Origin: Escherichia phage RB69
Sequence record: NC_004928.1
Direction: 5' to 3' (one strand)
DNA length: 64,000 nucleotides
Numbering within the stretch: position 1 is the stretch's first letter; every line of letters starts with the position of its first letter. Under the pieces are notes generated by a model. The model searched no databases, was not told where the DNA came from, and worked only from the letters and a program-made list of their open reading frames with translations. The position numbers and the translations under genes were made by a program. This document shows, one piece after another, positions 4,766 through 45,173 of this stretch.

Positions 4766-4806
4766 TAATTTGATGTGGTCATTATAACCACATCGTGTTA
4801 AAGCGT
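4766..4806 (-). promoter_or_regulatory. early-type promoter with embedded palindrome (GATGTGGT..TATAAT..CCACATC)
   Basis: -10 TATAAT (minus strand) flanked by 8-bp inverted repeat, about 25 nt upstream of ORF start. Confidence 0.4.
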
Positions 4807-6495
4807 TTATGAAACAGTCATTACAGTAAATCGTCCAACTTTGCTCATTTGAAGATGTTGTCCATAAGCTTGTGGGTCATGGTCTCTGTGACTAATTATA
4901 AACACGTTTGCATCGGTTAGAGAGTTAAGAATTGTTGAAATAGCTTTAATACCTTCAGAATCAGTCGCTGAATCCATGACTTCGTCCATAATTAATGTAT
5001 TGATTCTAACACCAGAGACCTTTTCGGCAATATCTCGCCATGTAAACAACAATGCGATATCGATACGTGCCTTTTCACCTTGACTAAATGAAGCATAACT
5101 AAACTCTTCACGGCCACGTGATTTTATAGATTCATTGAATTCTTCATCAATAGAAAACACGTAATCAGCTTCCATGATTTTAAGGTAATGGTTAATCTGC
5201 TTGTTGAACAGAGGCACATATTTTTTAATGATAGCACCTTTAATACCAGAATCTTTTAACATATCTGTGATAATACCACGATGGTATTTTTCAAGAACGA
5301 TATCCGATTTTGTTTTAATGATTTTATCAAGTTCTTTTTGAAGCAAAGCTATCTCATCGGCATGGTCGATAAATTCCGCCGAGGCTTGTTCTATTGCAGC
5401 TTTAACTTTCTTAGCTTTATCAATAGTGGCAATCATTGCTTGTTTCTTGGTACGAATATCAGATGCAAGGTCCTGTTTAGTCTTAACATTAGCTCTATAT
5501 TCGTCCACTAGGACACTCAGATTATCTCTGTGACAGGTAAGTTGCTCGAATGAGTGATTACATTCATGAAGCTTATCGGTAATCTTAGAGACAATAGGAT
5601 CACCCTGGTGCAACTGTGATGCACAAGTAGGACATGTACCACCATCATGATACATCTTAATAACTTTGTTATATGAGTCAATTTTAGATTTAATCAAGAA
5701 TGCTTCTTGTCCGATCTTGTTGAATGCCTCAGTAGGGTCTTCATCAAGAACGATATTAAGTAGTCGCTCATTAGCTTCTTCGATTTCTGCTTTTAATGAA
5801 CGAGCTTCTTTGGCTAGGTCGTCATACATATTCTGTAGACGCGCTACATTATCACCAGATAATTTCTTTTGACGTTCGATATTCTCATTATAAATCTTAA
5901 TTTGTTGGATAACACCATCTTTCTTGGCATCGAGAACTTGTCCCTGGGAATTAAGTTCTCGAACTTGAGACTTATTGATTTTATCCATTTCAGCGAGTGT
6001 GCCAACTTCTAAAAGGTCTTCGACAAGTTTTCTACGAGCAGGGGTGCTAAGAGCCATGAAAGGGGTATACCCTGCCGTCCCAAGCACAACGATTTGTTTA
6101 AAAGACGCGTATGACATTCCGATGCTACGTTCAAATTCTTCTTGGAAGTCACGACTGCTGGCAGATTCATCAAGACGAACACCGTCAACGGAGATTTCGA
6201 AAATATTGGGCTTTTGGCCACGTTTAATGAAGTATTTTTTATCATCGAATTCCATCCAAAGCTCAACTAAGAGCTCTTTCTTGTTCGTGCTATTAATGAT
6301 TTGTCCTTTCTTAACATCACGAAATGGTTTACCGAAAAGTCCGAAAGTAATGGCTTCTAACATCGTAGATTTACCACCGCCATTTTTACCAGTGATTAAT
6401 GTCTTTTGGACTTTATCTAATTGGATATCAATAGGATTCCCACCTACCGACATGATGTTTTGATAACGAACACGATTTAATTTAAATGATTTCAT
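4807..6495 (-). CDS. 46: recombination endonuclease subunit gp46 (Rad50/SbcC-like ATPase)
   Basis: 562 aa; Walker A GKNGGGKST; similarity to T4 gp46. Confidence 0.9.
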   Translation of the reverse strand: MKSFKLNRVRYQNIMSVGGNPIDIQLDKVQKTLITGKNGGGKSTMLEAITFGLFGKPFRDVKKGQIINSTNKKELLVELWMEFDDKKYFIKRGQKPNIFEISVDGVRLDESASSRDFQEEFERSIGMSYASFKQIVVLGTAGYTPFMALSTPARRKLVEDLLEVGTLAEMDKINKSQVRELNSQGQVLDAKKDGVIQQIKIYNENIERQKKLSGDNVARLQNMYDDLAKEARSLKAEIEEANERLLNIVLDEDPTEAFNKIGQEAFLIKSKIDSYNKVIKMYHDGGTCPTCASQLHQGDPIVSKITDKLHECNHSFEQLTCHRDNLSVLVDEYRANVKTKQDLASDIRTKKQAMIATIDKAKKVKAAIEQASAEFIDHADEIALLQKELDKIIKTKSDIVLEKYHRGIITDMLKDSGIKGAIIKKYVPLFNKQINHYLKIMEADYVFSIDEEFNESIKSRGREEFSYASFSQGEKARIDIALLFTWRDIAEKVSGVRINTLIMDEVMDSATDSEGIKAISTILNSLTDANVFIISHRDHDPQAYGQHLQMSKVGRFTVMTVS

Positions 6496-6740
6496 ATGTA
6501 TTCTCTTCGAATGAAGTCCTCTACATATTTTAACATGTCATCTCTATCAGCAAAATACTCGTCTAGTTCTGCATACATAACAACACCCGGTGCGTACTCA
6601 CAGGTAACATACATTGTTCCAAAGAAACGAGGAGTTGTCTCCTCGTAATTCTCAGTCCATTCAACGATACCAATATAACCGTCACCAATACTAAATTCAT
6701 GACGATGGATTTCATAATCAGTCTTCGTCATTATACGCAT
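6492..6740 (-). CDS. hypothetical protein
   Basis: 82-aa ORF between genes 47 and 46, overlapping stop/start with gene 46. Confidence 0.45.
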   Translation of the reverse strand: MRIMTKTDYEIHRHEFSIGDGYIGIVEWTENYEETTPRFFGTMYVTCEYAPGVVMYAELDEYFADRDDMLKYVEDFIRREYI

Positions 6741-6975
6741 CCTTGATACATGCTTCAGCCATTTTAAGAATAGAGCCAGGAGTATCGTTGTCCATTATAT
6801 TAAAGCTAAATTCAATAGCCCAGTCGGTGCAGACATGAACTGCTTTAACTTCATCGCCTTCAACGCGTAATGGCTCAATCCAATACTTGATAGTGTTCTC
6901 GAATCCATCATCATCTTTAACGTCCATTTCAACTTCAAGCCTGAGTCCAGCATTGTTAAATTCATCTAAAGTCAT
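6718..6975 (-). CDS. hypothetical protein
   Basis: 85-aa ORF between genes 47 and 46. Confidence 0.45.
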   Translation of the reverse strand: MTLDEFNNAGLRLEVEMDVKDDDGFENTIKYWIEPLRVEGDEVKAVHVCTDWAIEFSFNIMDNDTPGSILKMAEACIKDAYNDED

Positions 6976-7991
6976 TGTGTTGCCTCAATATAAAGTTCGT
7001 TGGAATATTTGACCAGCGCTTCTCTGTCTTCGTCTGAGATATCTGGAATCGCGTCAATATATTCTTTAATGATATCTTGAAGTGATTTAATCTCGATTTC
7101 CTGGTCGTCATCAGATTCAACACTGTTATCAACTTTAGAAACCATACGAAGAGAGTGAACTACTTTTTCAAGTTCAGATTCAAACTTAGTCAACTCTGAA
7201 TCAATTTCTGATACTATAACACGTACGGCTAGATTGGTATAATCAGAATAATTGATTTTGCCTTTAAACGGATAAGTGATTCGTCGATGCCATGTTGTTT
7301 CATTAGGAATAAATTCCATACGTTCAACATCAGTGTCAAATACCCAGAATCCGCGCGGGTCGTTCTCATCACCTGCAGTAAGAGTCCATGGTGTCCCAAT
7401 ATATTTGACGTTAGCAGCTTCAGAGATTGTGTGGAAGTGGCCGGACCAGACTTGTTTATAAGTCTTTAAGAAATCAGGTTCAAGCCCATGAGACTTCATC
7501 CCTTTATAGAAATAAAAGCCATTCAGTTCCCAATGACCAACACAATACGCGGCAGAAGAAGTCTTGATGTGCTCTAAGATTTCACCTGTATTTTCTTCAC
7601 ACATCCATGGAACGATATCAATCAGACATCCGTCAAAATCTACAGTAGTTGGATGCTCGTAAATAGTAAAGTTTTCAAATTGAGTTAACAATTCAGAAAC
7701 AGTGTTAGGTGTTATTGTATTCTTAAACGCCATGTCATGGTTTCCTATCGTGACATGAACGTGAATACCTGCTTTAGAAATCATATCAACGATTTCACGA
7801 TTGAATTCCATTGTACGATGTGTTATTGCTTTACGGACATCAAACCAATCGCCGTACTGAATCCAAGTTTTAATCCCGTGTTTCTTAGAGTATTCAATTG
7901 CTTGACGAATACCATCACGTTGAATATCTTGAACCCATGGGTCGTCTTGTTTGACTCCGATATGGAAGTCGCCTAAGTGCAAAATTTTCAT
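6972..7991 (-). CDS. 47: recombination endonuclease subunit gp47 (Mre11/SbcD-like phosphoesterase)
   Basis: 339 aa like T4 gp47; MKILHLGDFHIG calcineurin-like motif. Confidence 0.9.
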   Translation of the reverse strand: MKILHLGDFHIGVKQDDPWVQDIQRDGIRQAIEYSKKHGIKTWIQYGDWFDVRKAITHRTMEFNREIVDMISKAGIHVHVTIGNHDMAFKNTITPNTVSELLTQFENFTIYEHPTTVDFDGCLIDIVPWMCEENTGEILEHIKTSSAAYCVGHWELNGFYFYKGMKSHGLEPDFLKTYKQVWSGHFHTISEAANVKYIGTPWTLTAGDENDPRGFWVFDTDVERMEFIPNETTWHRRITYPFKGKINYSDYTNLAVRVIVSEIDSELTKFESELEKVVHSLRMVSKVDNSVESDDDQEIEIKSLQDIIKEYIDAIPDISDEDREALVKYSNELYIEATQ

Positions 7992-8025
7992 ATTATTTCC
8001 TCATTAGTTAATTCATTTTATCATC

Positions 8026-8051
8026 CGTTTATAAAGCAAAAAAGGAACTCC
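8026..8051 (-). terminator. rho-independent terminator (GGAACUC-UUCG-GAGUUCC followed by U-run on minus strand)
   Basis: 7-bp stem, tetraloop, T-run on transcribed strand, just upstream of gene 47. Confidence 0.55.
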
Positions 8052-32119: not shown

Positions 32120-32138
32120 TTTTGTTTCCTTGTTTGTT

Positions 32139-32179: not shown

Positions 32180-32182
32180 CGT

Positions 32183-32443: not shown

Positions 32444-32449
32444 TTTTCC

Positions 32450-32863: not shown

Positions 32864-32921
32864 AATTTCCTCCAAGTAGTTGATGAATGTATAGTATCAA
32901 AGTCCTTGGAGGAAGTAAACA

Positions 32922-33688: not shown

Positions 33689-33722
33689 AATACCTCCCAC
33701 GTTTATAGGAGGTATTTATTAC

Positions 33723-34422: not shown

Positions 34423-34901
34423 TCGGTAATAAAACGTTCAACTTCATTATTCTTGGCCTTTATCTTGTCTTTACGTTCCTGTAAACTACTTTTAACAAGA
34501 TTAATAATGATGCCTACAGTACCTCCACCAATAATACCACCAATAATACTTACAATAGTAGATGCTAATAAGATAGCGATAATATCTGGTACAGCAAAGG
34601 CACTTACTTTAGTACTAAAAAACCATACCGACGGTACAAATATAATCCATCCTGTTATCCATTGGCACTTATTGAAAAACTTTTCAAGCTCAGCTTGGGT
34701 TGTTCGTATTACTTCATCGATAGGTTGATATCCATTAATGTATCTGTTCACGATAATACCTGCTGGTTTGTCGATTTTAAATGCTTGACAATGGTGTTTC
34801 ACTAAGTAGGATGGACATCCTGTCCAATCTACTGAATAGTATGAAATACCTTCGTCGCCACCGTCCATGTTTGACCAGTGAATTTTCTGTATCATTACCA
34901 A
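34404..34901 (-). CDS. membrane protein with conserved C-terminal ERFITECR tail
   Basis: 165 aa; C-terminal hydrophobic helices; shares the C-terminal tail family (see findings). Confidence 0.5.
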   Translation of the reverse strand: MVMIQKIHWSNMDGGDEGISYYSVDWTGCPSYLVKHHCQAFKIDKPAGIIVNRYINGYQPIDEVIRTTQAELEKFFNKCQWITGWIIFVPSVWFFSTKVSAFAVPDIIAILLASTIVSIIGGIIGGGTVGIIINLVKSSLQERKDKIKAKNNEVERFITECRNLR

Positions 34902-35581
34902 CCTTCCATAGGGAATTCCAGATAAACTTGAGCGTTGACACGAATTTCATTGGTAATCTTTTTAACTCGGTCCGTATTACGAGATACACGTCCGAACCAA
35001 CGCCATCCATTACTAATTGCACGAGAACCAGTGTGCCATGTTTGCCAATCAAACTGAAGAAGAGTACGGTCTGGAGCTTCCCATTTCTCTAGTTCGCCTT
35101 TTTCGATTTTTTCGAGGACTTCTTTGTGCCACTGGCGATAGATAAGTTCGCCATCAGGAATCTGACTGAACTCTGCAGTTCCTGTTGCAAAATGAGTAGG
35201 ACACACATCAGCGTTAACAAGACCAAGAATATGTTCAGACAAATAGCGAGGATTGTCATAGTCAGGTGGTCCTGCAGTAATAAAGTGTTGACCAACCGGA
35301 ATATCTGGGCGTGGTACATCGTCATGGTGATAACCTGGGATAGCAGGATACCAACCAGGCATCAGCATGTGGACTCGTGAATCAAATACTACATCCGAGT
35401 CTTTCCAATCGTCAGGGAGATTTTGGATAAAGCTACGAGTAATTGGACCGCCGTTATCAAAAGCAAAATTCAAATCGCAATTAAAGAACATAGGCTCGTT
35501 TTTAATCTGGTCGTTTTTAATCGCATGAGCAAAACCACCTACTGCACGAGCTTGACTATTAAACACTTTAGAACTATTCAT
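34895..35581 (-). CDS. hypothetical protein, possible 2OG-Fe(II) oxygenase-like fold
   Basis: candidate HxD (YHHDD), distal His (WHTG) and RxS (RVS) arrangement; weak. Confidence 0.35.
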   Translation of the reverse strand: MNSSKVFNSQARAVGGFAHAIKNDQIKNEPMFFNCDLNFAFDNGGPITRSFIQNLPDDWKDSDVVFDSRVHMLMPGWYPAIPGYHHDDVPRPDIPVGQHFITAGPPDYDNPRYLSEHILGLVNADVCPTHFATGTAEFSQIPDGELIYRQWHKEVLEKIEKGELEKWEAPDRTLLQFDWQTWHTGSRAISNGWRWFGRVSRNTDRVKKITNEIRVNAQVYLEFPMEGW

Positions 35582-35582
35582 A

Positions 35583-35888
35583 TTATTTTCCTCGACATTC
35601 TTTAATGAAATTTTCTAGATTGGTAGATTCAATAGCTTTTTTACGAGCTTCTGCGTGTTCTTCTTCAGACAATTTACGTTTATAATTGACCCAGACATTA
35701 TGGTCGAAACTAGTCGTGGCATATAATAACAATGCTCCAACGAATAGCAAAAACGGCGATAAGAATACAAAACCAGGAACACCATCCATATCGTAAGCCT
35801 TTTGTAATACTGCAACAGAAAGGGCTGCGTAAAAAAGTGATGCAAATATTGTTAAAAGACCAATTCGGTTGGTTTCGCCTAATTTCAT
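35583..35888 (-). CDS. small membrane protein with C-terminal ENFIKECR tail
   Basis: 101 aa, two hydrophobic helices. Confidence 0.5.
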   Translation of the reverse strand: MKLGETNRIGLLTIFASLFYAALSVAVLQKAYDMDGVPGFVFLSPFLLFVGALLLYATTSFDHNVWVNYKRKLSEEEHAEARKKAIESTNLENFIKECRGK

Positions 35889-35907
35889 AATATTCTCCTC
35901 ATGTTTA

Positions 35908-35946
35908 ATAGGACTACTATAATATAGTCCTATAATTGTGTAAACA
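35908..35946 (-). promoter_or_regulatory. early promoter cassette, canonical copy (TAGGACTA/TAGTCCTA)
   Basis: GTTTACA -35, -10 within 8-bp inverted repeat. Confidence 0.5.
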
Positions 35947-35957
35947 GTTTTGCGAAA

Positions 35958-36914
35958 TTATTTGAAAGGTTTTACCATATGGAAATTTTGTTTGAAACGT
36001 TTGACGTAATCGTCATGTCCTAAACTTTGGTACATACTTACTACTTTGCTGTAGTTTTCCCAGGCATACTCACGGAACCAACCAGAGGTGATGCTTGTAC
36101 AGACTTTTTCCAATGCCATCATAAAACTGGCTTCAGGGTTAATTTTAAAGTCATTAGGAATTTGAGAACGTTCTAATGCTAGTACACATGATTCTTCGTA
36201 TACACCAGCCAATTTGACCATTTCTGGTAATGATTCGAACTTCTCGCGTGAGGTCATGACTTCAGAGCCGTCTTTCATATAAAATGTATACGCTGGACGG
36301 TCTGTTAGTGCAATGGCTTCATGAATAGTATCATGGTCATATGTATAGATGTCATCTTTAAAGAACGCACTTTTAGAAGTGTCAAGAACCGGGTGAGCAT
36401 AGTTCAAGGTTTCTTTCTGGCGTTTCAGCATAATTTCAGTAAGTTCATCGTTCAGTGTAACACCTTTACCACGAAGATACTGAATATGGTTCATAGTCTT
36501 TAAAAAGAATGGATTATTTTTCTTGAAACGATGAGACATCTTAATTGCAAGACATATCTCAGGAGTTGCCCAGTAAAACCCGTTCAAACGGTCTTTAGTC
36601 AAATTTTTCTTGGCGTATTTTAAAAGGTCATAAGAAGACGTGAAATCTTCAGGAGTGAGTTCACCGATTAATTCACGGACATTAGTGATTGCCGGAACAA
36701 TATATGCTTCAAAATGAGTTTCGCGTCCATTATGGAAGCATTTGAAAACTTGGACATCAGGGTTATCTTGGTGAACATATACACCCATCATTTGATTTTT
36801 GAATGCATTCCAAGAACATTGGTCCGCAATAAAGTCCCAATCGCTATTTTTGATAGCGCTAGAATCAATAAGACCGTGATAGTGAAGTGCACGAGAACCA
36901 ATAACCAACATCAT
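35958..36914 (-). CDS. hypothetical protein (318 aa); weak nucleotidyltransferase-like or HD-like motifs
   Basis: N-terminal GSRALHYHG...SDWDF and later DHD; assignment tentative. Confidence 0.45.
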   Translation of the reverse strand: MMLVIGSRALHYHGLIDSSAIKNSDWDFIADQCSWNAFKNQMMGVYVHQDNPDVQVFKCFHNGRETHFEAYIVPAITNVRELIGELTPEDFTSSYDLLKYAKKNLTKDRLNGFYWATPEICLAIKMSHRFKKNNPFFLKTMNHIQYLRGKGVTLNDELTEIMLKRQKETLNYAHPVLDTSKSAFFKDDIYTYDHDTIHEAIALTDRPAYTFYMKDGSEVMTSREKFESLPEMVKLAGVYEESCVLALERSQIPNDFKINPEASFMMALEKVCTSITSGWFREYAWENYSKVVSMYQSLGHDDYVKRFKQNFHMVKPFK

Positions 36915-36942
36915 AATATTTTCCTCTGATTAATTCATTAAC

Positions 36943-37194
36943 TTAAATTTCACGACATGCGATATCATATTCATCCCAGAGGTCATCGTGTGAAGCCTCT
37001 ACCAATGGAACGATTGTGCCGTTTATGTCTTCATTATAAGGGCAAATTGTACAGTGCGCATCTTCGAATCGGATGCCTTTGTGTTCAGATTTTTTATAAC
37101 GCATATCGAATATCTTTGCAAACTTTTCACGAGTAATGGTTTTAGCAACCACTTTGGTTCCGATACTTTCGTAATAAATCATTGTGGACTCCAT
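36943..37194 (-). CDS. hypothetical protein
   Basis: 83-aa ORF with CxxC..H motif. Confidence 0.45.
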   Translation of the reverse strand: MESTMIYYESIGTKVVAKTITREKFAKIFDMRYKKSEHKGIRFEDAHCTICPYNEDINGTIVPLVEASHDDLWDEYDIACREI

Positions 37195-37200
37195 TTAATT

Positions 37201-37240
37201 TGATAGGACTACTATAACATAGCCCTATCTTGTTGTAAAC
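37201..37240 (-). promoter_or_regulatory. early promoter cassette (canonical family)
   Basis: GTTTACA..TAGGGCTATGTTATAGTAGTCCTATCA. Confidence 0.5.
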
Positions 37241-37244
37241 TGTT

Positions 37245-37442
37245 TTAGCAAGAATAACTAGATGATACCCAGCCTTGAACAGTAATACTATTATTTGATA
37301 ACGAGATTGCGTCCTGGAGATTCAGACCTGCGTTATCTTCAATCCATAATGTAACTTCTTCGCGTTCTTCTGTTGCAATTTGGAACAGGTTTTCCAGAGC
37401 AGCTACTGCCGTACGTACAGCACAATCTAATTCGCGAGACAT
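37245..37442 (-). CDS. small protein, member of a tandem mosaic trio
   Basis: 65 aa; C-terminus GWVSSSYSC shared with 37452..37724. Confidence 0.45.
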   Translation of the reverse strand: MSRELDCAVRTAVAALENLFQIATEEREEVTLWIEDNAGLNLQDAISLSNNSITVQGWVSSSYSC

Positions 37443-37451
37443 ATTGTTTCC

Positions 37452-37724
37452 TTAGCAAGTGTGAGAAGATGCGACCCAACCACCAGTTTCGAGGCTCAGG
37501 TTGTAGTCGTATTGGTAAACGTCAGCCCATTCAGCATAGCCGTTTTTTGTACAACGTTCAAGATCGGCTTTAAGATGTCCGGGTGAATGATAGGTTCCAC
37601 CCATACCATAAGCTGGGTACAAGTCGAATGTTGTGTTTTGTTTATCAGCAATTTCTTTGGCAGCCTCAATAGCTGCATAGATTTTTGCTACAGCTTCAGT
37701 CAGTTCGGTTTGTTCTTTAGACAT
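37452..37724 (-). CDS. small protein, member of a tandem mosaic trio
   Basis: 90 aa; YGMGGTYHSPG motif shared with 37825..38040 and GWVASSHTC tail shared with 37245..37442. Confidence 0.45.
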   Translation of the reverse strand: MSKEQTELTEAVAKIYAAIEAAKEIADKQNTTFDLYPAYGMGGTYHSPGHLKADLERCTKNGYAEWADVYQYDYNLSLETGGWVASSHTC

Positions 37725-37824
37725 AATGATTCCTTAGCACAACGCAGGAGACGAAACCCAAGCACCTTCAGTAATAACGTAACCATTACCTTCACGCTTA
37801 ACATCGCCACCATTATTTTCAATT

Positions 37825-38040
37825 TCATTTTTCATACCACTGGGATACGATTTCACCCTTAGGATAATAAGTACGACCGCTACCATAATCACCTACAGAA
37901 AATGATACGGCATATTGGTCTGCGATCTTTGTTGCTTCTTCTTCGATACGTTCAGCTTGATTCAGAAGTTTATAAATTGCATCTGAAGCGGATTTGGCAT
38001 CATTAAATTCTGGTACTTTAATTTCGATAATCTTACTCAT
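37825..38040 (-). CDS. small protein, member of a tandem mosaic trio
   Basis: 71 aa; YGSGRTYYPKG motif. Confidence 0.45.
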   Translation of the reverse strand: MSKIIEIKVPEFNDAKSASDAIYKLLNQAERIEEEATKIADQYAVSFSVGDYGSGRTYYPKGEIVSQWYEK

Positions 38041-38396
38041 TTTCTACATTCCTTAATAAAGTTTTCTATTGTTTCATTTTCACGTTTAGCTAGGAGTTCA
38101 TTATAACTAATCATTTGAGAAGCGTAAACCTTTTTATTTTTCTTGTTATGGTTTATAAAATCGTAGTAAAAATAGACTACAGTACAAAATGATGCGATGG
38201 ATGCAAAGGCTTGGGTATACCGTAAGTCCTGCCATTGGTCTGTGAATCCGCCAGTGTTTCCTATAAATCCTAACACAACGCCGTCAATAAGAAATCCAAC
38301 TAATCCAAAGGCAAATCCCATGCCAATACTCATAATAAAAATTAGAATGTTCTCACCAAGAGAAGGCCATACGGTTAAGAGTTGAGGCTTTTGCAT
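38037..38396 (-). CDS. membrane protein with C-terminal ENFIKECRK tail
   Basis: 119 aa, glycine-rich TM helices. Confidence 0.5.
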   Translation of the reverse strand: MQKPQLLTVWPSLGENILIFIMSIGMGFAFGLVGFLIDGVVLGFIGNTGGFTDQWQDLRYTQAFASIASFCTVVYFYYDFINHNKKNKKVYASQMISYNELLAKRENETIENFIKECRK

Positions 38397-38770
38397 CTTA
38401 TTTCCTTAACGAATTCCATAGCTTCTTCATATTCATACTTTTTAACAGCTTCATCATACTGAGCTTGGGCTTTTGCGCACTGAACTTTCCACTCACGAAC
38501 TCGAGCTCTGTGATGACGGCCTTGGTGCCAATATCCTACCCAATTAATAGGCATTAATAAAAACGGTACAATAAGTGGTGCGACGAACATTAATGAAAAT
38601 GCTGCATCAGACGATATAACTTCACTAGAATCTAAAACAGCTCCTATAATCATAAAGATTAAAAATGCTAAAGCTAAAATAGGGCCAAATAGTACTTCAT
38701 TAGGAATTAATTTACGTTTGTATTCGTATGCCCAGGGCTTACTTGGCATGTATAGGGTTGGCTTTGACAT
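38375..38770 (-). CDS. membrane protein with C-terminal EFVKEIRCK tail
   Basis: Track ORF 38375..38800 trimmed to MSKPTLY. Confidence 0.45.
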   Translation of the reverse strand: MSKPTLYMPSKPWAYEYKRKLIPNEVLFGPILALAFLIFMIIGAVLDSSEVISSDAAFSLMFVAPLIVPFLLMPINWVGYWHQGRHHRARVREWKVQCAKAQAQYDEAVKKYEYEEAMEFVKEIRCKSLNS

Positions 38771-39362
38771 ATTCTCTACATTCCATAATAAATTGCTCAA
38801 GGATTAAATTGTTAGTGAAATTAGGACTAACAACCATAGTTTCATAAAGCGCATCAATAGCACTTAAAGCATCAACTCTTTTAAGCAAAGGCTTGCCTTC
38901 ATACATAGTTTCAGAATCGATGATTAACGTAAAGTAATATTTTTTATTATCGACTAGAACTTCTGTATCGATATAAAACATATTAGACCTCAGAAGCTTA
39001 TCTCTAAAACCATAATAATCTTCAGAGCGTTCGCTGATATATTCCCATTCAGTGTTTAAACAACAAACAGACCATGTAGGAGCAACGAAATCAGTGAATC
39101 TAATATCATGGTCTGCAACTAGTTTAGCAATAGCTCCGATATCATGAATCATAATACCTGGGGCTAATAAAGATTTTCTGCTATGGCTAGCCGTTTTCTC
39201 GGTGGTCTCATAAGAAGACGACCAGTACCATTTACGTCCGGTTGCAACATATCGTAATGAATCAACTAAAGACGTAGGTGGATTTACCTTATCTCGGAAC
39301 TCTTCAAACATTGAGTCAATATCATTATTTTGGTTTCGCATGTTAACTCCTTTATTATCCAA
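38739..39362 (-). CDS. hypothetical protein with C-terminal EQFIMECREY tail
   Basis: 207-aa ORF. Confidence 0.5.
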   Translation of the reverse strand: MDNKGVNMRNQNNDIDSMFEEFRDKVNPPTSLVDSLRYVATGRKWYWSSSYETTEKTASHSRKSLLAPGIMIHDIGAIAKLVADHDIRFTDFVAPTWSVCCLNTEWEYISERSEDYYGFRDKLLRSNMFYIDTEVLVDNKKYYFTLIIDSETMYEGKPLLKRVDALSAIDALYETMVVSPNFTNNLILEQFIMECREYVKANPIHAK

Positions 39363-39390
39363 AAGGAGGACCGGAGTCCTCCGTATTATT

Positions 39391-39999
39391 TTATTTCAAA
39401 GAGTTAATATATTCTTGTACATCAGCAGAAGTGGTTTCGACACCAGCTGGAGTGCCATTGAACGTTTCAACACGAGTCAGAGTGTCTTCGATATCAACCT
39501 TAGTCAGTGCAGCGATTTCAATTACATCATCGGCCGTAGAGATACCAAGGGCATTGGCTGCTCGAGTTTCACGAATGTATTCGAGTTTGATTGCCAGATT
39601 CTGACGAGCATCATCAAGTTCAACCACCTTACGAGCAATTTCAATTCGCATAGCGGCATACCCGTCAGCTTTTGTATTAAGTTGTTCGGCAGTTCGACGA
39701 TACAGAAGACCAAGCTTAGCATGCATGGTAACATCTTGTCCTTCAGCCAAGAGCTTACGAATTTCACGTTCCTTAGAAGCGGCTTGCTTGTTCTTTTCAT
39801 TAACAAGTTCGCGAATACGTTTTTCTTCATTAATAGATTTAACAGAAGCCGTTTTTAGTTCTTTGATTTGGGTAATCAACTTATCTGCAGCTGCGTTATA
39901 CTGTTCTTCGACAGTCAGATTTTTAGCCATAGCAGTACCCAGTTTAGTGCGGATGAATTCAACAAGTTTCTTCAGTGTGTTCATATTATTACCTTTCAA
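39391..39999 (-). CDS. coiled-coil protein, possibly PspA/IM30-like
   Basis: about 200 aa, predominantly helical heptad-rich sequence; similarity to PspA is impressionistic. Confidence 0.45.
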
Positions 40000-40013
40000 T
40001 TGGTGGTTTATTA

Positions 40014-40054
40014 TCCAACGAGAGCATTATACTCTGCTCTCAAGAGTTTGTAAA
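40014..40054 (-). promoter_or_regulatory. early promoter cassette, near-duplicate of 10461..10501
   Basis: CCAACGAGAGCATTATACTCTGCTCTCAAGAGTTTGTAAAT. Confidence 0.45.
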
Positions 40055-40282
40055 TTATTTTTTAATCAAATTGACATAAAACTTGGCGTCTTCGGGGTGC
40101 ATGCCTTCGCAGTATTCTTCAACCATGAACTTCTTAACAGCTTCATAAGGACCACTCAGATTAAGCTCAGTTGTCCAGAACTTGGAATCTTGGACTGAAT
40201 CGATACGAACTTCAGGGTGTCGGTTGCGAATAACTTCTTCGGTGTATTCATAATCAACGACATCAATACTAACTTTAGCCAT
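40055..40282 (-). CDS. hypothetical protein
   Basis: 75-aa ORF. Confidence 0.45.
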   Translation of the reverse strand: MAKVSIDVVDYEYTEEVIRNRHPEVRIDSVQDSKFWTTELNLSGPYEAVKKFMVEEYCEGMHPEDAKFYVNLIKK

Positions 40283-40300
40283 TTTGTATTCCTCGTGTTT

Positions 40301-40340
40301 TGATAGGACTACTATAACATAAACTTACTTAGATGTAAAT
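40301..40340 (-). promoter_or_regulatory. early promoter cassette (canonical family)
   Basis: TGATAGGACTACTATAACAT core. Confidence 0.45.
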
Positions 40341-40511
40341 TATTTCAACGTCACCTTTAGCTGCTTTATAACCTTCAGCCCAAGATACAACAGAGTTTTT
40401 ATCTGAGGATTCAAATTCAGGCATTGGACTTTCACCAATATTCACACAGTATGTTTCTTCATTTTCATCGAACCAAATAATTAAAGTAGTCATTTTGTTT
40501 ACTCCTCTGTA

Positions 40512-40553
40512 GTTGATAAGTCTATAGTATCACCATCCTTGGTGCTTGTACAT
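40512..40553 (-). promoter_or_regulatory. early promoter cassette (hybrid of the GATAAGTCTATAG and CCATCCTTGGT variants)
   Basis: ATGTACA -35, TATAGT -10-like. Confidence 0.4.
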
Positions 40554-40561
40554 CATTATTT

Positions 40562-40894
40562 TTAATTTTTCCAACTTAACAACTTGTAGTGTCCTTCATT
40601 CATACGTGGTTTATCCCAAGAAATACTAATATATGATTCACTGTCAATAGAAGTCGCCGGGTTTTTCTCTACCGTAAGACCTTCACTTTCCAGCCATTCA
40701 ATAGTATTTGCGCATAAATCAGAAGAACACCTAATCGGAAACCGGCAAGATTTTTCACCTTTAGCTGCAGCGTTATACATCTTTTCTAAAATACGCTTTT
40801 GCACGTTTTTAAAAATAGTTTCAGCAGATTCTTCAGATTTTTTATTCAGTTCAGTATAAAGACTCATAACATTCTTCTCATTAATAGGGCTCAT
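40562..40894 (-). CDS. hypothetical protein
   Basis: 110-aa ORF. Confidence 0.45.
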   Translation of the reverse strand: MSPINEKNVMSLYTELNKKSEESAETIFKNVQKRILEKMYNAAAKGEKSCRFPIRCSSDLCANTIEWLESEGLTVEKNPATSIDSESYISISWDKPRMNEGHYKLLSWKN

Positions 40895-40924
40895 AATATC
40901 TCAATCATAAGCCCATGTACGCGT

Positions 40925-41200
40925 TTATTTCATATTATCGAAATATTCTTCAGCGATTTCGACATTATTATGGTAAACTTTAGAAGACAGTTTAACATAA
41001 CCTTCAGCAGTGAACATGTTAATCACAACCTTTACAGTATACCACTGACCATCTTCATTACCCATTACTGCGTAAGTTTCAAACATCGGATGGTCAGGTC
41101 CAATAACTTTAATATCATTCACCGTACGACCGAAATCTTCTGGAACGCATTTCATAAAGAAGTTGAACAGTTCACCATAATTATCCATTTCATTCTCCAA
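40925..41200 (-). CDS. hypothetical protein
   Basis: 91-aa ORF. Confidence 0.45.
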   Translation of the reverse strand: MENEMDNYGELFNFFMKCVPEDFGRTVNDIKVIGPDHPMFETYAVMGNEDGQWYTVKVVINMFTAEGYVKLSSKVYHNNVEIAEEYFDNMK

Positions 41201-41390
41201 GTTTTTTCTGTATCGGTAGTTGATAGTTGTATAGTACCACGGAAGAACAGGGATGTAAACAGTTTTGTGAAAAAAATTTTTAAAAAGTTTTGTGGAATTC
41301 TAGGGCAGGGAGAGGAAATTAAAAGGTAGGATAATATATTATAAAGGGTATAAACTAAATGATGCCTAGAGAGGCCCGGAAAGGCCTAGA

Positions 41391-41420
41391 TACAAAAAAG
41401 CCCTATCATTTAGATAGGGA
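41391..41420 (-). terminator. rho-independent terminator (CCCUAUC..GAUAGGG then U6)
   Basis: hairpin followed by CTTTTTTGT on minus strand immediately after ORF ending at 41428. Confidence 0.55.
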
Positions 41421-41549
41421 TTTAAAATTATTTACCTAGTTTAGTTATTATAGCTTCGGCAGCAGCTTTTAGCTTAGATGCAGTGTTAATACGATTTTTA
41501 ATTTCGGTATACGCATCGCCAAGAACATCAAGGCTATCAGAATAAACAC

Positions 41550-41990
41550 TTACACTATTGCGTTCGCTATTTTGAATAGAACCTTTAGTTTTACGATCAA
41601 AATCAGTGTACACGTCTTGAAGACACGGGCTGCCTTCTTTGCATCATCCAATGCATCAAGAGCTTTATTCAAAGCATTGACATATTTTTTAGTGTCAAAC
41701 ATATTCTTAGAAATTTTAACAGGTGCACGTTCAGGAGTAGCTAAGGCGGATTTAGGAACCTGCGTGCCAGATGCCAGTTTCTTAGAAATTTTGAAAAACG
41801 CTTTATTGAAACTATTTTCTTGACTCATCGTAAAAGAACTAGTATCGATGTTATACATTTCAATAGCTTTAGCTTTCCACTTAAGAAAATCGCCACGGTC
41901 TTTTGGATCCAAGTGGAAGAATACTTTAGTAAGATCTGCTTCAGATGGTAATTTTGCTGCTTCGGTTAAAAATTCGGCATAGGTTTTCAT
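41550..41990 (-). CDS. internal-protein-like protein with capsid targeting sequence; 3' end uncertain
   Basis: N-terminus MKTYAEFLTEA; a second frame (41428..41613) stays open to the terminator. Confidence 0.5.
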   Translation of the reverse strand: MKTYAEFLTEAAKLPSEADLTKVFFHLDPKDRGDFLKWKAKAIEMYNIDTSSFTMSQENSFNKAFFKISKKLASGTQVPKSALATPERAPVKISKNMFDTKKYVNALNKALDALDDAKKAARVFKTCTLILIVKLKVLFKIANAIV

Positions 41991-42080
41991 TTAAAATCCT
42001 TGAAATAATTTATCGGTTGGTTATTAATTATTTATTACTTTGTTATTATCAGTAACAGCATTCTCTGAGTGATTCAAACT

Positions 42081-42108
42081 AAAAAGCCCCAACCTTTCGG
42101 AAGGGGCT
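42081..42108 (-). terminator. rho-independent terminator, identical copy of 26135..26163
   Basis: GCCCCTTCCGAAAGGTTGGGGC then T5 on minus strand. Confidence 0.55.
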
Positions 42109-42159
42109 AAGCCTCGCGGCAACCTTGTCGGGGTTCCACCTGCTAAGGCAAGTGTTTGT

Positions 42160-42262
42160 ACGAAACGCCGGGATTCGAACCCGGTTATTAAGCAGTTGAC
42201 GCTACTCAATATTTTTAAAAGGCCATATCTCGACCATATCCGAACGTTCCGTCAAAAACGCT
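42160..42262 (-). ncRNA. tRNA-like structured RNA (canonical T-arm CCGGG-UUCGAAU-CCCGG with paired acceptor-like stem)
   Basis: GGTTCGAATCC T-arm motif on minus strand; about 90 nt between acceptor-like strands; does not fold into a standard cloverleaf by eye. Confidence 0.3.
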
Positions 42263-42419
42263 ACTCGACTTACGGCAAAGATATTTCCTCGAATCGATAA
42301 TTCGGTGCGCCGTTTCTGCTGTGATGTAAGGGGATATTAACGAATCATAAAGATTTATTAAGACCAGTCCTTACTCAGGGAACATCAGTCCGACGACTTA
42401 CCGGTAGCGACCCGGCTTC

Positions 42420-42764
42420 TTATTTTGACATATTATCAATTTGCTCTCGACGCCGTCGCCATAGATTAATCGCTTCATTAACACATTCGGCGTTTGGTAT
42501 ATGACGGCAATAATATAATGATTCGCGTTTCTGGAACCGATGTTGCAATGGGATTTCGTTTAAAAGGTCTTTACGGTCAAAGTATTCAAAACTAGTTAAC
42601 CCGGAACGGTTTTTAAGAAACTTCCAATGTCCGAATTCATTTTGAAAATAAACATAATCAGCATGTTGATATAATGAATTAATTAACCTATCGGAAATAA
42701 CTGTTTCACGTTCGTTAAAATAAAATGTTAAATCATGAACTACTAAGTAAACATTGCCTTTCAT
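42420..42764 (-). CDS. hypothetical protein embedded between tRNA-like genes
   Basis: Track ORF 42420..42812 trimmed to MKGNVYLVV with SD GAGGAAAA; positionally analogous to segB in the T4 tRNA cluster but no endonuclease motif recognised. Confidence 0.45.
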   Translation of the reverse strand: MKGNVYLVVHDLTFYFNERETVISDRLINSLYQHADYVYFQNEFGHWKFLKNRSGLTSFEYFDRKDLLNEIPLQHRFQKRESLYYCRHIPNAECVNEAINLWRRRREQIDNMSK

Positions 42765-42782
42765 ATTTTCCTCACTTAAAGT

Positions 42783-42861
42783 TGGTCGAGACAGAAGGAT
42801 TCTAACCTTCAACCTACGGATTAGAAGTCCCCGTTGCTCTATACAATTGAGCTATGCCTCG
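42783..42861 (-). tRNA. tRNA-like gene, Arg(UCU)-like anticodon context with non-canonical loop
   Basis: 7-bp acceptor stem, D-stem GCUC/GAGC, T-arm GAAGG-UUAGAAU-CCUUC, encoded CCA; anticodon arm only folds with a 9-nt loop. Confidence 0.4.
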
Positions 42862-42867
42862 AATATA

Positions 42868-42941
42868 TGACCCAGACCAGATTCGAACTGGTAACCTTTC
42901 CCTTATGAGGGGACTGCTGCTAACCGTTGAGCTACAGGGCC
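42868..42941 (-). tRNA. tRNA-like gene, CAU anticodon context (Met/Ile), imperfect D-arm
   Basis: T-arm ACCAG-UUCGAAU-CUGGU, acceptor stem with one U-U mismatch, loop CUCAUAA. Confidence 0.35.
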
Positions 42942-43020
42942 TAAATAACTTTCTATTATGAAAGGCACTTTAGAGTACCTTTGGTAATAGAGGGTATGAA
43001 TTAATAATAACACATAATTC

Positions 43021-43536
43021 TTAAAGCAAATCAATCATTTTAACAGTTGGCAAAACGATTTCTTCTTCAATATAAGCAAATTCAACACATTCAACTACAC
43101 GCAAGAAATCATAATCATAATATTCAGAAGCATGACCAAGAATACCAATGAGACCTTCTGATACCAAATATCCATTCTCACGAAACAGGTCGAATACACA
43201 CGATTCGTCTTCTTCAGATTTATTACCAAGGTCGACTTCAATATCAAAGACCTTTTTAATGAATTCTGGATAAAGCTGGTCTGAGAACAGTCCTTCAACC
43301 AAGTATTCATAGATTAAAAGCGAGCAATCACTGAATGGTGTATTACCGCAATAACGTTCGGCTTTGGTGCTAGAATGACGGCTCTTAAATTTCTTCAAGA
43401 GATATTTAAACTGTTGGAGCTCATGCTCTTCCACTTCAAACAATGTTTTGGTTTTATAGTTGTCACCATCATTTTCATAGGTAGTGACATCAATTACGTA
43501 ACCCTTAGGAATTGTACTGCCTAAACAAATATTCAT
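43021..43536 (-). CDS. hypothetical protein
   Basis: 171-aa acidic ORF. Confidence 0.5.
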   Translation of the reverse strand: MNICLGSTIPKGYVIDVTTYENDGDNYKTKTLFEVEEHELQQFKYLLKKFKSRHSSTKAERYCGNTPFSDCSLLIYEYLVEGLFSDQLYPEFIKKVFDIEVDLGNKSEEDESCVFDLFRENGYLVSEGLIGILGHASEYYDYDFLRVVECVEFAYIEEEIVLPTVKMIDLL

Positions 43537-43540
43537 TTAC

Positions 43541-43831
43541 TCACCGTACCATATTAATGTAATTATATTCAATGCAACGTAATTTCAAAGGATTCTTGAA
43601 AATATCATATTCAAGAGGGCCTTTTTCTGTTTCAATAAAGAAATCAAAGTTAACTGTGTTAAATTTATCGTCTTCACAGAGTAATTTAACTTGCGAAGAC
43701 GAACGGTCGATATAAACCTTTTCAACCTCAAAGTTAGTCAGAATACCATAGTCATTAACTAGTGCTTTAGCTGCACGTTGGTCGCTTTCATATCCGTTCT
43801 CAATGGACGATACTTTAGCATAAAGAATCAT
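43541..43831 (-). CDS. hypothetical protein
   Basis: 96-aa ORF. Confidence 0.45.
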   Translation of the reverse strand: MILYAKVSSIENGYESDQRAAKALVNDYGILTNFEVEKVYIDRSSSQVKLLCEDDKFNTVNFDFFIETEKGPLEYDIFKNPLKLRCIEYNYINMVR

Positions 43832-44190
43832 GAATGTTCCACCACTTCAAAGGTATGAGCATCAACAATATGATACCAGTCAAAATTTTCTTCTGCGTTT
43901 TTATAAATTTCGCGAAGAGCTTCAACAGTTTTTCCTGTAGCAACAAGATCGTCAATACCGCCAAGAGGATAACAGTCGTAACCAGCAAACAGAAGGAAAT
44001 TAATAGTTTCTGTAGGTTCTGGATGCAGTGTACCATTGTCATCGACTACTTCAAAGAACATATAACCAGGCGATTTAGATTTAATCCAAGCCCATGCTTG
44101 AGCTGCTGAATCAAATGGTTTGCGTATCAAACGACAATCAGGGTCTTTAGAAGGATTTGCTTCAAAATCCGCATATACGTGATATTTCAT
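43828..44190 (-). CDS. hypothetical protein
   Basis: Track ORF 43828..44223 trimmed to MKYHVYADF. Confidence 0.45.
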   Translation of the reverse strand: MKYHVYADFEANPSKDPDCRLIRKPFDSAAQAWAWIKSKSPGYMFFEVVDDNGTLHPEPTETINFLLFAGYDCYPLGGIDDLVATGKTVEALREIYKNAEENFDWYHIVDAHTFEVVEHS

Positions 44191-44191
44191 T

Positions 44192-44398
44192 TTACTCACC
44201 TTTTGCAATTTTATCCATAACAATAGCGATTAAACCGATTAGAAATGCTACTACCAATGAGATAGAGTTTTCAGTTGTTGTCAGTAGTCCACAAATGAAT
44301 CCTACAAACATCGAAAAACTAAAAGCCATTGAAGCAATTACTACAGCAACATTACGAATCAGTTCAGCGCGTTTCATTTTATTTCTCCATTTACTCAT
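44192..44398 (-). CDS. small membrane protein
   Basis: 68 aa, two hydrophobic helices. Confidence 0.45.
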   Translation of the reverse strand: MSKWRNKMKRAELIRNVAVVIASMAFSFSMFVGFICGLLTTTENSISLVVAFLIGLIAIVMDKIAKGE

Positions 44399-44405
44399 TT
44401 TGTTT

Positions 44406-44445
44406 TGATAGGACTACTATAACATAGTCTTATCAGCATGTAAAC
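44406..44445 (-). promoter_or_regulatory. early promoter cassette (canonical family)
   Basis: GTTTACATGCTGATAAGACTATGTTATAGTAGTCCTATCA. Confidence 0.5.
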
Positions 44446-44448
44446 TAC

Positions 44449-44736
44449 TTACAGAAGAGTTTTTGCAATAATTTTAAGCTGAGCTACAGAAATATGCTTA
44501 GCTTTAAACAGTGCAGTCTCTTCAGCCGGAGAGATAACAATAGTAGCGCCATCTTTCTTAGCAGACCATCCATCCCCTAAGTAAACAGTACCTTTTACTT
44601 CTTCGCCGTCAACCAGACTAATCATTGGTTTACCCTCACGTCCTTTATTTGCTTTAATAACTTCGGAAGTAAGGGTTGCTTCGGTCAGAGTAGAAACGTT
44701 AGCAACAGGTGATATAAATTCTTTATAGGTTTTCAT
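44449..44736 (-). CDS. internal-protein-like protein with capsid targeting sequence
   Basis: MKTYKEFISP leader; start trimmed. Confidence 0.55.
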   Translation of the reverse strand: MKTYKEFISPVANVSTLTEATLTSEVIKANKGREGKPMISLVDGEEVKGTVYLGDGWSAKKDGATIVISPAEETALFKAKHISVAQLKIIAKTLL

Positions 44737-44758
44737 TTTAGGTTCCATTTTGTTGTTT

Positions 44759-44798
44759 TGATAGGACTACTATAACATAGTCCTATCGTGTTGTAAAA
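44759..44798 (-). promoter_or_regulatory. early promoter cassette (canonical family)
   Basis: TAGGACTA-tgttatag-TAGTCCTA with -35 TTTTACA. Confidence 0.5.
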
Positions 44799-45109
44799 TA
44801 TTTTATGCCTTTAGATGAAATAGTATTCTGGCGTTTGACCCCTGTTTGTGAAAAATCATGGTTATCAATTTGGTCAACTCGCATAACACCAAATGCAGAT
44901 TTAATTTTAGCCTTTGAACCTTTTTTGATACTAATTACCATATAAGTATCATTTTTCTTATATTCGAAATTTGTTACTTCAACGCCTTGATTAGAAATTG
45001 ACTTAATAATAGCATTAGCGTATTCATCATCTAACGGACCGTTAGTGTTAATAACAAAATTTTTATCTGCTTTAGTAGCTTCCGCGATGAATTCTTGATA
45101 GGTTTTCAT
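44783..45109 (-). CDS. internal-protein-like protein with capsid targeting sequence (ipI position)
   Basis: MKTYQEFIAEA leader; located directly before 57B as ipI is in T4. Confidence 0.55.
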   Translation of the reverse strand: MKTYQEFIAEATKADKNFVINTNGPLDDEYANAIIKSISNQGVEVTNFEYKKNDTYMVISIKKGSKAKIKSAFGVMRVDQIDNHDFSQTGVKRQNTISSKGIKYFTTR

Positions 45110-45133
45110 TTTATTTCCTTGAGGTTGTTTATT

Positions 45134-45173
45134 TGATAGGATGATAGTAACACACCATCATCCTTATGTAAAC
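45134..45173 (-). promoter_or_regulatory. early promoter cassette (AGGATGAT..ATCATCCT palindrome variant)
   Basis: GTTTACA ... TATCATCCTATCAAA. Confidence 0.45.

Follow-up and report, generated by a model that had tools for sequence, protein, structure and literature searches.

This study concerns a 64,000-nt stretch of the genome of Escherichia phage RB69 (NC_004928.1; hereafter, the window) and the promoter cassettes that recur in it, many of which hold an inverted repeat around the -10 hexamer. The minus strand from about 130 to 48,600 is occupied by an array of early and middle genes which, as named via an annotated relative, runs through 43, regA, 62, 44, 45, rpbA, 46, 47, 55, nrdH/G/D, 49, pin, and nrdC, continues with tk, vs, and regB and then with ipII/III-like genes, denV, e, and nudE, and closes with two tRNA genes, ipI, 57B, 1, 3, 2, and 4. 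Over most of its length, the window is 95-97% identical to Mosigvirus coliphages (RB69-like, Tevenvirinae), for example ChristianSchoenbein, ST2, and PhAPEC2. Rfam gave no match at the cassettes, and its only matches in the window were the two tRNAs.

Promoter cassettes of the early gene array

Promoters were searched for as GTTTAC (at most one mismatch)-N16-18-TAnnnT and then by a position-weight scan, and are labelled here by window coordinate (e.g., P44798). About 25 early promoters of the form GTTTAC(A)-N17/18-TAnnnT, with A-rich -40 regions, and one middle promoter were predicted by sequence, all on the minus strand (approximately 26 cassettes); the position-weight scan gave 23 cassette matches on the minus strand versus none on the plus strand. 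An early cassette is composed of an A-rich UP region, the GTTTACA -35 box, a spacer of 17 or 18 nt, a TAnnnT -10 hexamer (TATAGT, TATAAT, or TACTAT, 17-18 nt downstream of the GTTTAC(A) box), the start region CCTATCAA, a Shine–Dalgarno (SD) sequence, and an ATG; CCTATCAAAAC stands between the hexamer and the SD, and CTATCAA recurs downstream of the early promoters, ahead of the SD and ATG. These scans recovered the minus-strand GTTTACA-like box, the -10 hexamer, and the SD with its ATG at the places given in the initial annotation, which had called all of the cassettes early; this description fits about 25 of them, and the copy at 4794 is a middle promoter with a MotA box. An SD with an ATG was matched within 60 nt downstream of every copy except P40055, for which the SD pattern search over 60 nt gave no match and a query with a guessed gene start for the ortholog returned only noise.

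The promoters stand in tandem, 0.3-3 kb apart, and reach their highest density at 40-45 kb. Some of the cassettes precede core genes (regB, denV, and ipI), and a cassette is present at 25 of the 95 minus-strand gene junctions, so that the earlier statement that they delimit almost every small gene was too strong.

Inverted repeats around the -10 hexamer

The repeat TAGGACTA-N8-TAGTCCTA was found on the minus strand in exact form at 25639-25662, 35909-35932, and 44762-44785; the copies at 37204-37227 and 44409-44432 each have one mismatch. The expected count from 100 shuffles is none. The regions at 25637, 35908, 37201, 44406, and 44759, previously listed as canonical, do hold the repeat, whereas the one at about 40301 (P40340) keeps its 3' half only; perfect 8-bp palindromes are limited to three copies. 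Perfect inverted repeats of at least 7 bp straddling the -10 hexamer were present in 10 of 22 clear promoters, versus 0.91 expected when the spacer and downstream sequence were shuffled, and none of 2000 shuffles reached 10, so the motif count clearly exceeds that of shuffled sequence. At random positions in the genome, the background for a perfect repeat of this length is 3.8%. When the downstream halves were swapped between promoters, a mean of 2.5 repeats (maximum 8) was obtained versus the 10 observed, and therefore the complementarity is largely promoter-specific.

Each of the 26 promoters was folded as RNA from the -35 box to the ATG. A hairpin enclosing the -10 hexamer, at a cut-off of -10 kcal/mol, was obtained for 15 promoters (range -10 to -22 kcal/mol), a hairpin confined to the spacer for two, and no hairpin for nine. 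The initial figure of over 20 copies thus stands for the promoter cassette but not for the palindrome.

In the main TAGGACTA family, the stems as RNA have 11-13 bp including wobbles and close the 6-nt loop GUUAUA, with energies of -11 to -18 kcal/mol and z-scores of -4 to -6.7. Most of the -10 hexamer is in the loop; the hexamer's final two bases open arm 2, which runs from there across the discriminator to about +3 (GTAGTCCTATC). Arm 2 is a conserved part of the promoter that also occurs in copies lacking arm 1 (P40340 and the P23004-type AGACCTATC), while arm 1 fills the spacer's 3' two-thirds, a stretch with no known sequence requirement, and varies among copies (TAGGACTA, AGGTCTAT, AGGATGAT, GAGAGC, GATGTGGT, and arms complementary to the SD). 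The arms pair as AGGATGAT/ATCATCCT, AGGTCTAT/ATAGACCT, GAGAGC(A)/(T)GCTCTC, (C)GAGAGA/TCTCTC(G), GATGTGGT/ACCACATC, and CGATAGG(G)AAGA/TCTTCCTATCG; at least eight unrelated arm sequences were counted, with loops of 3-30 nt and several registers. Variant arms that had been noticed before were found again at 45164 (AGGATGAT), 4794/4779 (GATGTGGT/ACCACATC), 10795/10772 (CGATAGG(G)AAGA/TCTTCCTATCG), and in the spacer at 19005 (CAACCA/TGGTTG).

In the main class, 13-20 nt separate the hairpin from the upstream stop codon and 5-20 nt separate it from the next SD, and in the main TAGGACTA family the SD lies outside the stem, which ends 5-20 nt ahead of it. A stem that includes the SD was found in four copies only, with 14 bp in regB, 10 bp in denV, 8 bp in P26124, and 5 bp together with an inner stem in P11931; in these copies, the 5' arm lies between the -35 box and the -10 hexamer, upstream of predicted local start sites.

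Comparative analysis of the repeats

The comparison set included seven Mosigvirus loci, loci with a 3' half from IMG/VR (six, by an 18-mer scan) and from metagenomes (51 in the scan, about half of which, lacking a -35 box, were set aside as unrelated matches that arose by chance or in other phages), and one Tequatrovirus locus, giving 146 unique cassettes. The commonest repeat register among them is centred on the first -10 bases (38 cassettes). In a gap-free alignment of the 99 cassettes with an 18-nt spacer, hairpin-less ones included, columns 10-22 paired with columns 29-41 in 63.7% of cells, versus 32-53% with slid partners, and the covariation score was 0.247, versus at most 0.188; none of 500 shuffles reached 0.247. 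G-C, G.U, and A-U were all seen at one pair among the P25675 orthologs, and other orthologs lengthen the stem through new pairs gained at its base. One relative's ortholog of P25675 has TATAGC in place of TATAGT as its -10 hexamer, which removes the conserved T at -7 and puts an A.C mismatch into the stem; this copy may be decaying.

The mismatches are asymmetric between the strands. In cassettes with at least 7 of 12 Watson–Crick pairs, the internal non-Watson–Crick cells comprise 29 G.T or T.G versus 12 A.C or C.A (binomial p=0.012), and most of the latter 12 come from the end of the stem or from cassettes let through the filter by chance; the main family has 27 wobble versus 2 A.C cells. 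Counted as independent events within ortholog groups, there are about 13 wobbles versus 2 A.C at internal main-family positions; a tally that takes in every class and position stands at about 13 versus 5. Several lineages have the wobble fixed (in P37240, all of the relatives' cassettes examined; in P45173, nearly all), whereas both A.C changes are singletons. As G.T on one strand is A.C on the other, this bias points to selection on the mRNA-sense single strand, and since AT-biased mutation favours G-to-A changes, the test errs on the conservative side.

For the conservation and event counts, a cassette was assigned to the main family if it agreed with the arm consensus at 7 or more of 11 positions. 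Changes per column within ortholog groups were 1.09 in arm 1, versus 4.2 in the adjacent 5' spacer and 2.2 in the untranslated region. The regB stem is kept within the genus, with one wobble in 28 stem nucleotides versus four changes in the loop, and it covaries with the Tequatrovirus version TCCTCTTGACT/AGTTAAGAGGA, which has a G.U pair. The denV stem is invariant in seven relatives and the window, and its loop varies. Judged from these sequence comparisons, the inverted repeat looks to be selected as a hairpin in sense-strand RNA and not as a protein-binding site in DNA.

Two further candidates were rejected. One was a hairpin or terminator on the antisense strand, in which the UP element would yield a U-rich tail, but the wobble bias is on the sense strand and the terminator scan picked out no such site. 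The other was a RegA operator: UGUUAU in the hairpin loop resembles a SELEX motif, AAUUGUUAUGUAA, a resemblance judged coincidental because UGUUAU is the extended -10.

Recombination at the cassettes

Comparison with seven relatives gave 58 distinct indel or replacement ends in 4700-45400. Fourteen of these breakpoints fall inside cassettes, versus 3.2 expected under a uniform null (cassettes make up 5.6% of the region), and none of 5000 trials reached 14. Under a fairer null that compares gene junctions, a breakpoint was present at 12 of 25 junctions with a cassette versus 17 of 70 without one (odds ratio 2.9, p=0.04). In relatives, three deletions (22986-23239, 40306-40486, and 44741-45086) fuse two tandem cassettes of the window into a chimera, with crossovers in ATGTTATTATAGACCTATC (-10 hexamer and discriminator), in the SD..AAAATG region, and in AAAATGAAAACCTAT (SD, ATG, and the shared N-terminus of the internal-protein genes). 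The association with gene shuffling put forward in the initial annotation is supported by the 14 breakpoints and the three chimeras. The chimeras are ordinary exchanges between short repeated blocks that do not need the dyad; the crossovers are in shared sequence, off the palindrome, and P23282 and P23004 lack a hairpin. Since they share blocks of 15-30 nt, the cassettes would serve as patches of homologous recombination at which intervening small open reading frames (ORFs) may be deleted or inserted.

Other rearrangements were observed in the array. ipI and an adjacent 108-aa paralog (44449-45109) share the SD, ATG, and first codons (MKTY...), and several relatives lack one ipI-like copy through exchange in a 27-nt shared block. 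Two tRNA genes lie at 42786-42941 on the minus strand, which a relative annotates as tRNA-Arg and tRNA-Ile/Met, and no other part of the region is as rearranged among the relatives as the flanks at 40.9-42.1 kb. Between genes 2 and 4, relatives carry an insertion of 650-720 bp (a putative homing endonuclease) that is absent from the window at 48174-48205.

Individual promoters

All promoters described below are on the minus strand, and energies are in kcal/mol. In the main family, P44798 (44760-44798), upstream of ipI, has the form TTTTACA-N-TATAGT with the hairpin GAUAGGACUAU-GUUAUA-GUAGUCCUAUC at 44787-44760 (-16.6, z -6.7). P44445 (44406-44445) has one A.C mismatch (GAUAAGACUAU; -11.1), and its orthologs in other phages are perfect. 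The family's G.U pair in P37240 (37202-37240; -16.0) is contained in GAUAGGGCUAU, and P35945 (35908-35945) forms AUAGGACUAU/GUAGUCCUAU (-12.3). Upstream of the second ipI-like gene, P45173 (45138-45173) forms AGGAUGAUGGUG/UACUAUCAUCCU with its fixed G.U pair (-15.4). The hairpin of P25675 (25635-25675) has 13 bp, UUGGUAGGACUAU/GUAGUCCUAUCAA (-18.0), and that of P21669 (21635-21669), AGGUCUAUGGU/AUUAUAGACCU (-13.4), shows a compensated difference from the main family, GGTCT/AGACC versus GGACT/AGTCC.

Unrelated arms occur in P40055 (40020-40055), where GAGAGCA/UGCUCUC pairs in the main-family register (-11.7), and in P10501 (10465-10501), where CGAGAGA/UCUCUCG covaries with P40055 and is weak (-9.2, z -1.9). 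P10802 (10761-10802), with ATGTAC as its -35 box, forms ACGAUAGG(G)AAGA/UCUUCCUAUCGU with a bulged G (-12.9), versus a perfect stem of 12-13 bp in its relatives. P4806 (4772-4809), the middle promoter upstream of 45.2/rpbA, has the MotA box GCTTTA-N12-TATAAT and the hairpin GAUGUGGUUA/UGACCACAUC at 4794-4772 (-13.3).

Four promoters lie in helices that contain the SD. In P29362 (29312-29362), upstream of regB, the 14-bp helix UUCUCCUCUAGUUG/CAACUAGAGGAGAA (DNA TTCTCCTCTAGTTG/CAACTAGAGGAGAA) has the SD as its 3' arm and the -10 hexamer in the loop (-21.6). This SD-masking helix covers the GGAG of regB autocleavage and is retained in Tequatrovirus with different, covarying arms. In P32920 (32867-32920), the SD of denV is sequestered by the 10-bp helix UUCCUCCAAG/CUUGGAGGAA (DNA TTCCTCCAAG/CTTGGAGGAA; -17.8), and in P26124 (26073-26124), the SD of a 59-aa ORF is sequestered by UUCUCCUC/GAGGAGAA (DNA TTCTCCTC/GAGGAGAA), at -13.2 with a weak z of -1.1. 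CCUC(G)...GAGG in P11931 (11881-11931) encloses the -10 hexamer and masks the SD, with an inner stem (-13.8), and is stronger in relatives.

The two spacer-only hairpins are of one type, CAACCA-AGGA-UGGUUG in P19005 (18985-19005) and CACCA-AGGA-UGGUG in P40553 (40531-40553). Such spacer-internal hairpins with an AAGGA-type loop recur on the minus strand at 18985-19000, 40531-40544, and about 21060-21083, the last being CCC-AAGGAC-GGG at a MotA-box middle promoter, and one is also present in Tequatrovirus (CACC-aaggac-GGTG).

Hairpins are absent from the remaining promoters. P40340 (40282-40340) keeps the TATAGTAGTCCTATCAAAAC half with a degenerate 5' arm. The tandem P23282 and P23004 (22936-23282), of the TATTATAGACCTATC type and with no significant hairpin, flank a 72-aa ORF; at this site, the relatives have a single chimeric cassette and lack the 72-aa ORF. 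No hairpin was found in P41260 (41188-41260), about 140 nt downstream of the canonical terminator at 41419-41401, in P32179 and P31342 (31276-32179), in P18031 (17973-18031), or in P38129 (38040-38129), which is inside the upstream ORF.

Upstream of gene 4 (head completion), the late-promoter motif TATAAATA (48638-48660, minus strand) is the 5' arm of an 8-bp inverted repeat, TATAAATA-ataatac-TATTTATA, whose 3' arm adjoins the SD (aggagg); it may be another promoter-in-hairpin arrangement.

Discussion

On the comparison of promoters within and among phages, these are cassettes of the promoter early stem-loop (PeSL) type in an RB69-like phage, and the hairpin probably acts in RNA reading through from upstream promoters. 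In approximately 60% of the promoters, the free spacer has evolved complementarity to a downstream segment, usually the conserved discriminator/+1 region, which places the -10 hexamer in a 6-nt loop, and in four cases the SD. As arm 2 spans the end of the -10 hexamer to about +3, sigma-70 geometry predicts a local transcription start near the A of CCTATCAA, within the 3' arm or past it, and hence a local transcript with neither arm 1 nor the hairpin; the initial annotation had likewise argued that the second arm overlaps the -10 hexamer and start site, so that the full hairpin is not in the local transcript, and the geometry supports this. Transcripts from upstream early promoters of the same tandem array, on the other hand, would hold both arms and could form the hairpin, which would thereby separate read-through RNA from locally initiated RNA.

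Read-through is plausible because the promoters are in tandem, canonical terminators are few, and the stems lack a T-tract. A terminator scan of 25400-45300 gave only two clear intergenic terminator-like sites on the minus strand, 41419-41401 and 39382-39365. These are the clearest canonical terminators of the early array, GGAGGACTCCGGTCCTCC+TTTT (39365-39382, called on both strands) and CCCTATCTAAATGATAGGG+CTTTTTT (41401-41419).

In the SD-pairing copies (regB, denV, P26124, and P11931), the read-through RNA's ribosome-binding site would be masked. The regB helix would also mask the RegB cleavage site, GGAG, in the SD of regB itself, and secondary structure is known to protect against RegB. 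In the main class, the hairpin would most likely attenuate read-through expression, as has been reported for one RB49 PeSL stem-loop, and/or serve as a 3' barrier that stabilises the upstream cistron; hindered ribosome loading at a stem 5-20 nt upstream of the SD may be a further option.

Several points weigh against this interpretation. The hairpin is not essential to the cassette, being absent from nine of the 26 promoters, and the energies of P10501 and P26124 are not clearly better than those of shuffles. The wobble bias rests on about 15 events, some of which may be shared among paralogous cassettes by gene conversion, and by admitting only cassettes that agree with the arm consensus at 7 or more of 11 positions, the main-family filter narrows the variation open to observation. 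G.T is also tolerated in single-stranded DNA, and a DNA hairpin of the sense strand is therefore formally compatible with the bias. The start positions, the read-through RNA, hairpin formation in vivo, and every functional consequence are predictions from sequence, and for the main class the predicted function lies among attenuation, stabilisation, and an effect on translation.

A competing explanation, a true transcription terminator that ends upstream transcripts and makes each small gene its own transcription unit (the literal promoter-terminator sense of a PeSL), is in our judgement unlikely. The hairpins are stable (-11 to -18 kcal/mol) and directly behind upstream stop codons, P41260, the sole promoter behind a canonical terminator, has no hairpin (a single anecdote), and in RB49, one PeSL stem-loop reduced the expression of a downstream lacZ to the same extent as rrnB T1 (PMC2839356). 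However, the lacZ assay cannot tell termination apart from a change in RNA stability or in translation. The promoter stems are AT-rich, containing 3-4 G-C pairs, none is matched by the terminator scan, AUCAAAACAAA follows them where a T/U tract would be expected, and the SD-masking versions make sense only with read-through RNA. It is still harder to believe that the pairing has no function and is a frozen accident of a duplicated ancestral cassette spread by gene conversion, although the main family is nearly identical at 5-6 sites and the demonstrated recombination between cassettes makes concerted evolution plausible. Independent, unrelated arm pairs occur elsewhere, including at a middle promoter, in Tequatrovirus, and at RB49 promoters; the partner swap fell far below the observed count; and orthologs show compensatory or wobble-only changes, with arm 1 about four times more conserved than the adjacent spacer.

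The initial annotation had preferred a DNA-level element, either a dimeric regulator site or a recombination hotspot, and neither form agrees with the varied arms, the sense-strand wobble bias, and the crossovers off the dyad; its inference overlooked read-through transcripts, which would hold the whole hairpin, there being almost no canonical terminators between the cassettes. An operator, in which a phage or host regulator dimer on the -10 hexamer controls the early promoters, would account for the 5-6 copies with nearly identical TAGGACTA/TAGTCCTA arms centred on the hexamer and for the preferred register of the dyad, and the shut-off of T4-type early promoters has been described as incompletely understood (PMC3014915). 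We nevertheless regard it as highly improbable: the diversity of arms, loops, and registers does not show a conserved half-site at fixed spacing, arm 2 of the main family is the conserved discriminator/+1 sequence that P40340 and P23004 keep without arm 1, compensatory changes preserve pairing and not sequence, and a duplex site predicts no excess of G.T over A.C. The palindrome as a specific recombination element, cut as a cruciform or hairpin (e.g., by endonuclease VII) or recognised by a recombinase and thus a shuffling hotspot, is also quite improbable, even though breakpoints between relatives are enriched at the cassettes, three deletions join tandem cassettes, and Arbiol 2010 speculated on a stem-loop-targeting protein and mapped one RB49 crossover to the loop (PMC2839356). 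The chimera crossovers lie in shared linear homology (once in the -10/discriminator and twice in the SD-ATG-first codons), the partner cassettes P23004 and P23282 have no hairpin, the enrichment over plain gene junctions is modest, and a cruciform would use both strands, so that a bias for G.T over A.C on one strand is not expected.

The link to PeSLs suggested earlier is supported. PeSLs were defined in RB49 and phi1, with five positional subclasses of the stem-loop, of which the commonest lie between -35 and -10 or overlap -10 (Arbiol 2010, PMC2839356), and they were extended to PST/T4 and nt-1/KVP40, including middle-promoter versions (Comeau 2014, PMC4122927); the Mosigvirus/RB69 group was not covered in the PeSL papers found. 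The description of PeSLs also includes termination or attenuation of upstream transcription by the stem-loop and the excision of mini-circles when neighbouring cassettes recombine. Our scan of 50 kb of RB49 gave 24 TTGACA-N16-18-TATAAT promoters, 16 with a repeat of at least 5 bp, of which 6 straddle the -10 hexamer with arm 2 opening in its last bases (for example, GGGGATAT-agcata-ATATCCCC, then atcgaaac), showing the same geometry. The parts also come in the same order, from an AT-rich upstream region and a strong sigma-70-type early promoter through the stem-loop to the SD and the start codon ATG of a small ORF. RB49 arm 2 is followed by AUAC/AUCGAAAC exactly as in RB69, the cassettes are enriched beside indels between close relatives with chimeric cassettes among them, the middle-promoter version P4806 parallels the nt-1 PmSLs, and the experimentally tested RB49 stem-loop likewise has no T-tract. 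The RB69 cassettes differ in their -35 box, which is GTTTACA (T4/RB69 type) and not TTGACA, and in their stems, which are AT-rich (TAGGACTA and others, 11-13 bp with wobbles) and not G(n)/C(n). Furthermore, the published PST/T4 stem-loops are just upstream of the promoter, and the published papers contain neither wobble-bias evidence for RNA-level selection nor an SD-pairing subclass. At the Tequatrovirus locus, three of nine early promoters have a repeat of at least 7 bp, versus 0.28 expected, and two of the three pair with the SD.

The SD-masking copies resemble T4 e, soc, 49, and I-TevI, whose long transcripts fold so that the SD is masked, while a promoter in the 5' strand of the helix yields translatable RNA (PMC3014915). 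In regB, denV, P26124, and P11931, the SD likewise falls in the 3' arm, with the 5' arm ahead of the predicted start, so that long transcripts would be masked and local ones open. The T4 cases, however, use late (or middle) promoters that delay translation to a late stage of infection, whereas the internal promoter in RB69 is early, so that discrimination would be by promoter of origin within one time class, and the main RB69 family has no SD in its stem. The early consensus of RB69 and T4 comprises GTTTAC at -36 to -31 and TAnnnT at -12 to -7, together with an A-rich UP region and a GT-rich stretch 5' of the -10 hexamer, and RB69 early promoters prefer C at -3 to -1 (Nolan 2006, PMC1524935), a preference that corresponds to the CC of AGTCCTA. 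In that study, linear logos are used to describe 57 early promoters of RB69, and any complementarity of the spacer to the discriminator/+1 region goes unmentioned.

Structures of read-through RNA are also familiar as intercistronic stabiliser hairpins, such as repetitive extragenic palindromic (REP) elements, and in lambda sib retroregulation. By analogy, the RB69 element would be a stable hairpin without a U-tract between cistrons and, as in sib, a structure of the longer transcript only. Those hairpins, however, are not built around the -10 hexamer of a promoter, and processing by RNase III or exonuclease blockage would be hypothetical for the RB69 element.

This study extends PeSL cassettes to the RB69/Mosigvirus group with a distinct and well-defined family of stems, and the compensatory changes, wobble bias, and conservation of arm 1 favour a role in RNA over the suggested roles in DNA. 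The novelty overall is modest; what the study usefully adds is strand-specific evidence of covariation, along with the SD-masking helices of early promoters at regB and denV, which are conserved or covary across genera and offer testable cases of control by promoter of origin. In therapeutic T4-type coliphages, the cassettes also mark the sites of gain and loss of small accessory genes. It is conceivable, although we hold this only tentatively, that promoter-embedded hairpins are a general filter of transcript origin in the early regions of T-even-type phages. If so, each internal early or middle promoter would lie inside a helix formed only in RNA arriving from upstream, and a cistron would be translated, cleaved by RegB or RNase E, or stabilised according to its promoter of origin. 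The principle of e, soc, 49, and I-TevI would then reach beyond a few late genes and cover much of the early transcriptome, and the stem-loops of PeSLs would gain a role at the RNA level other than termination.

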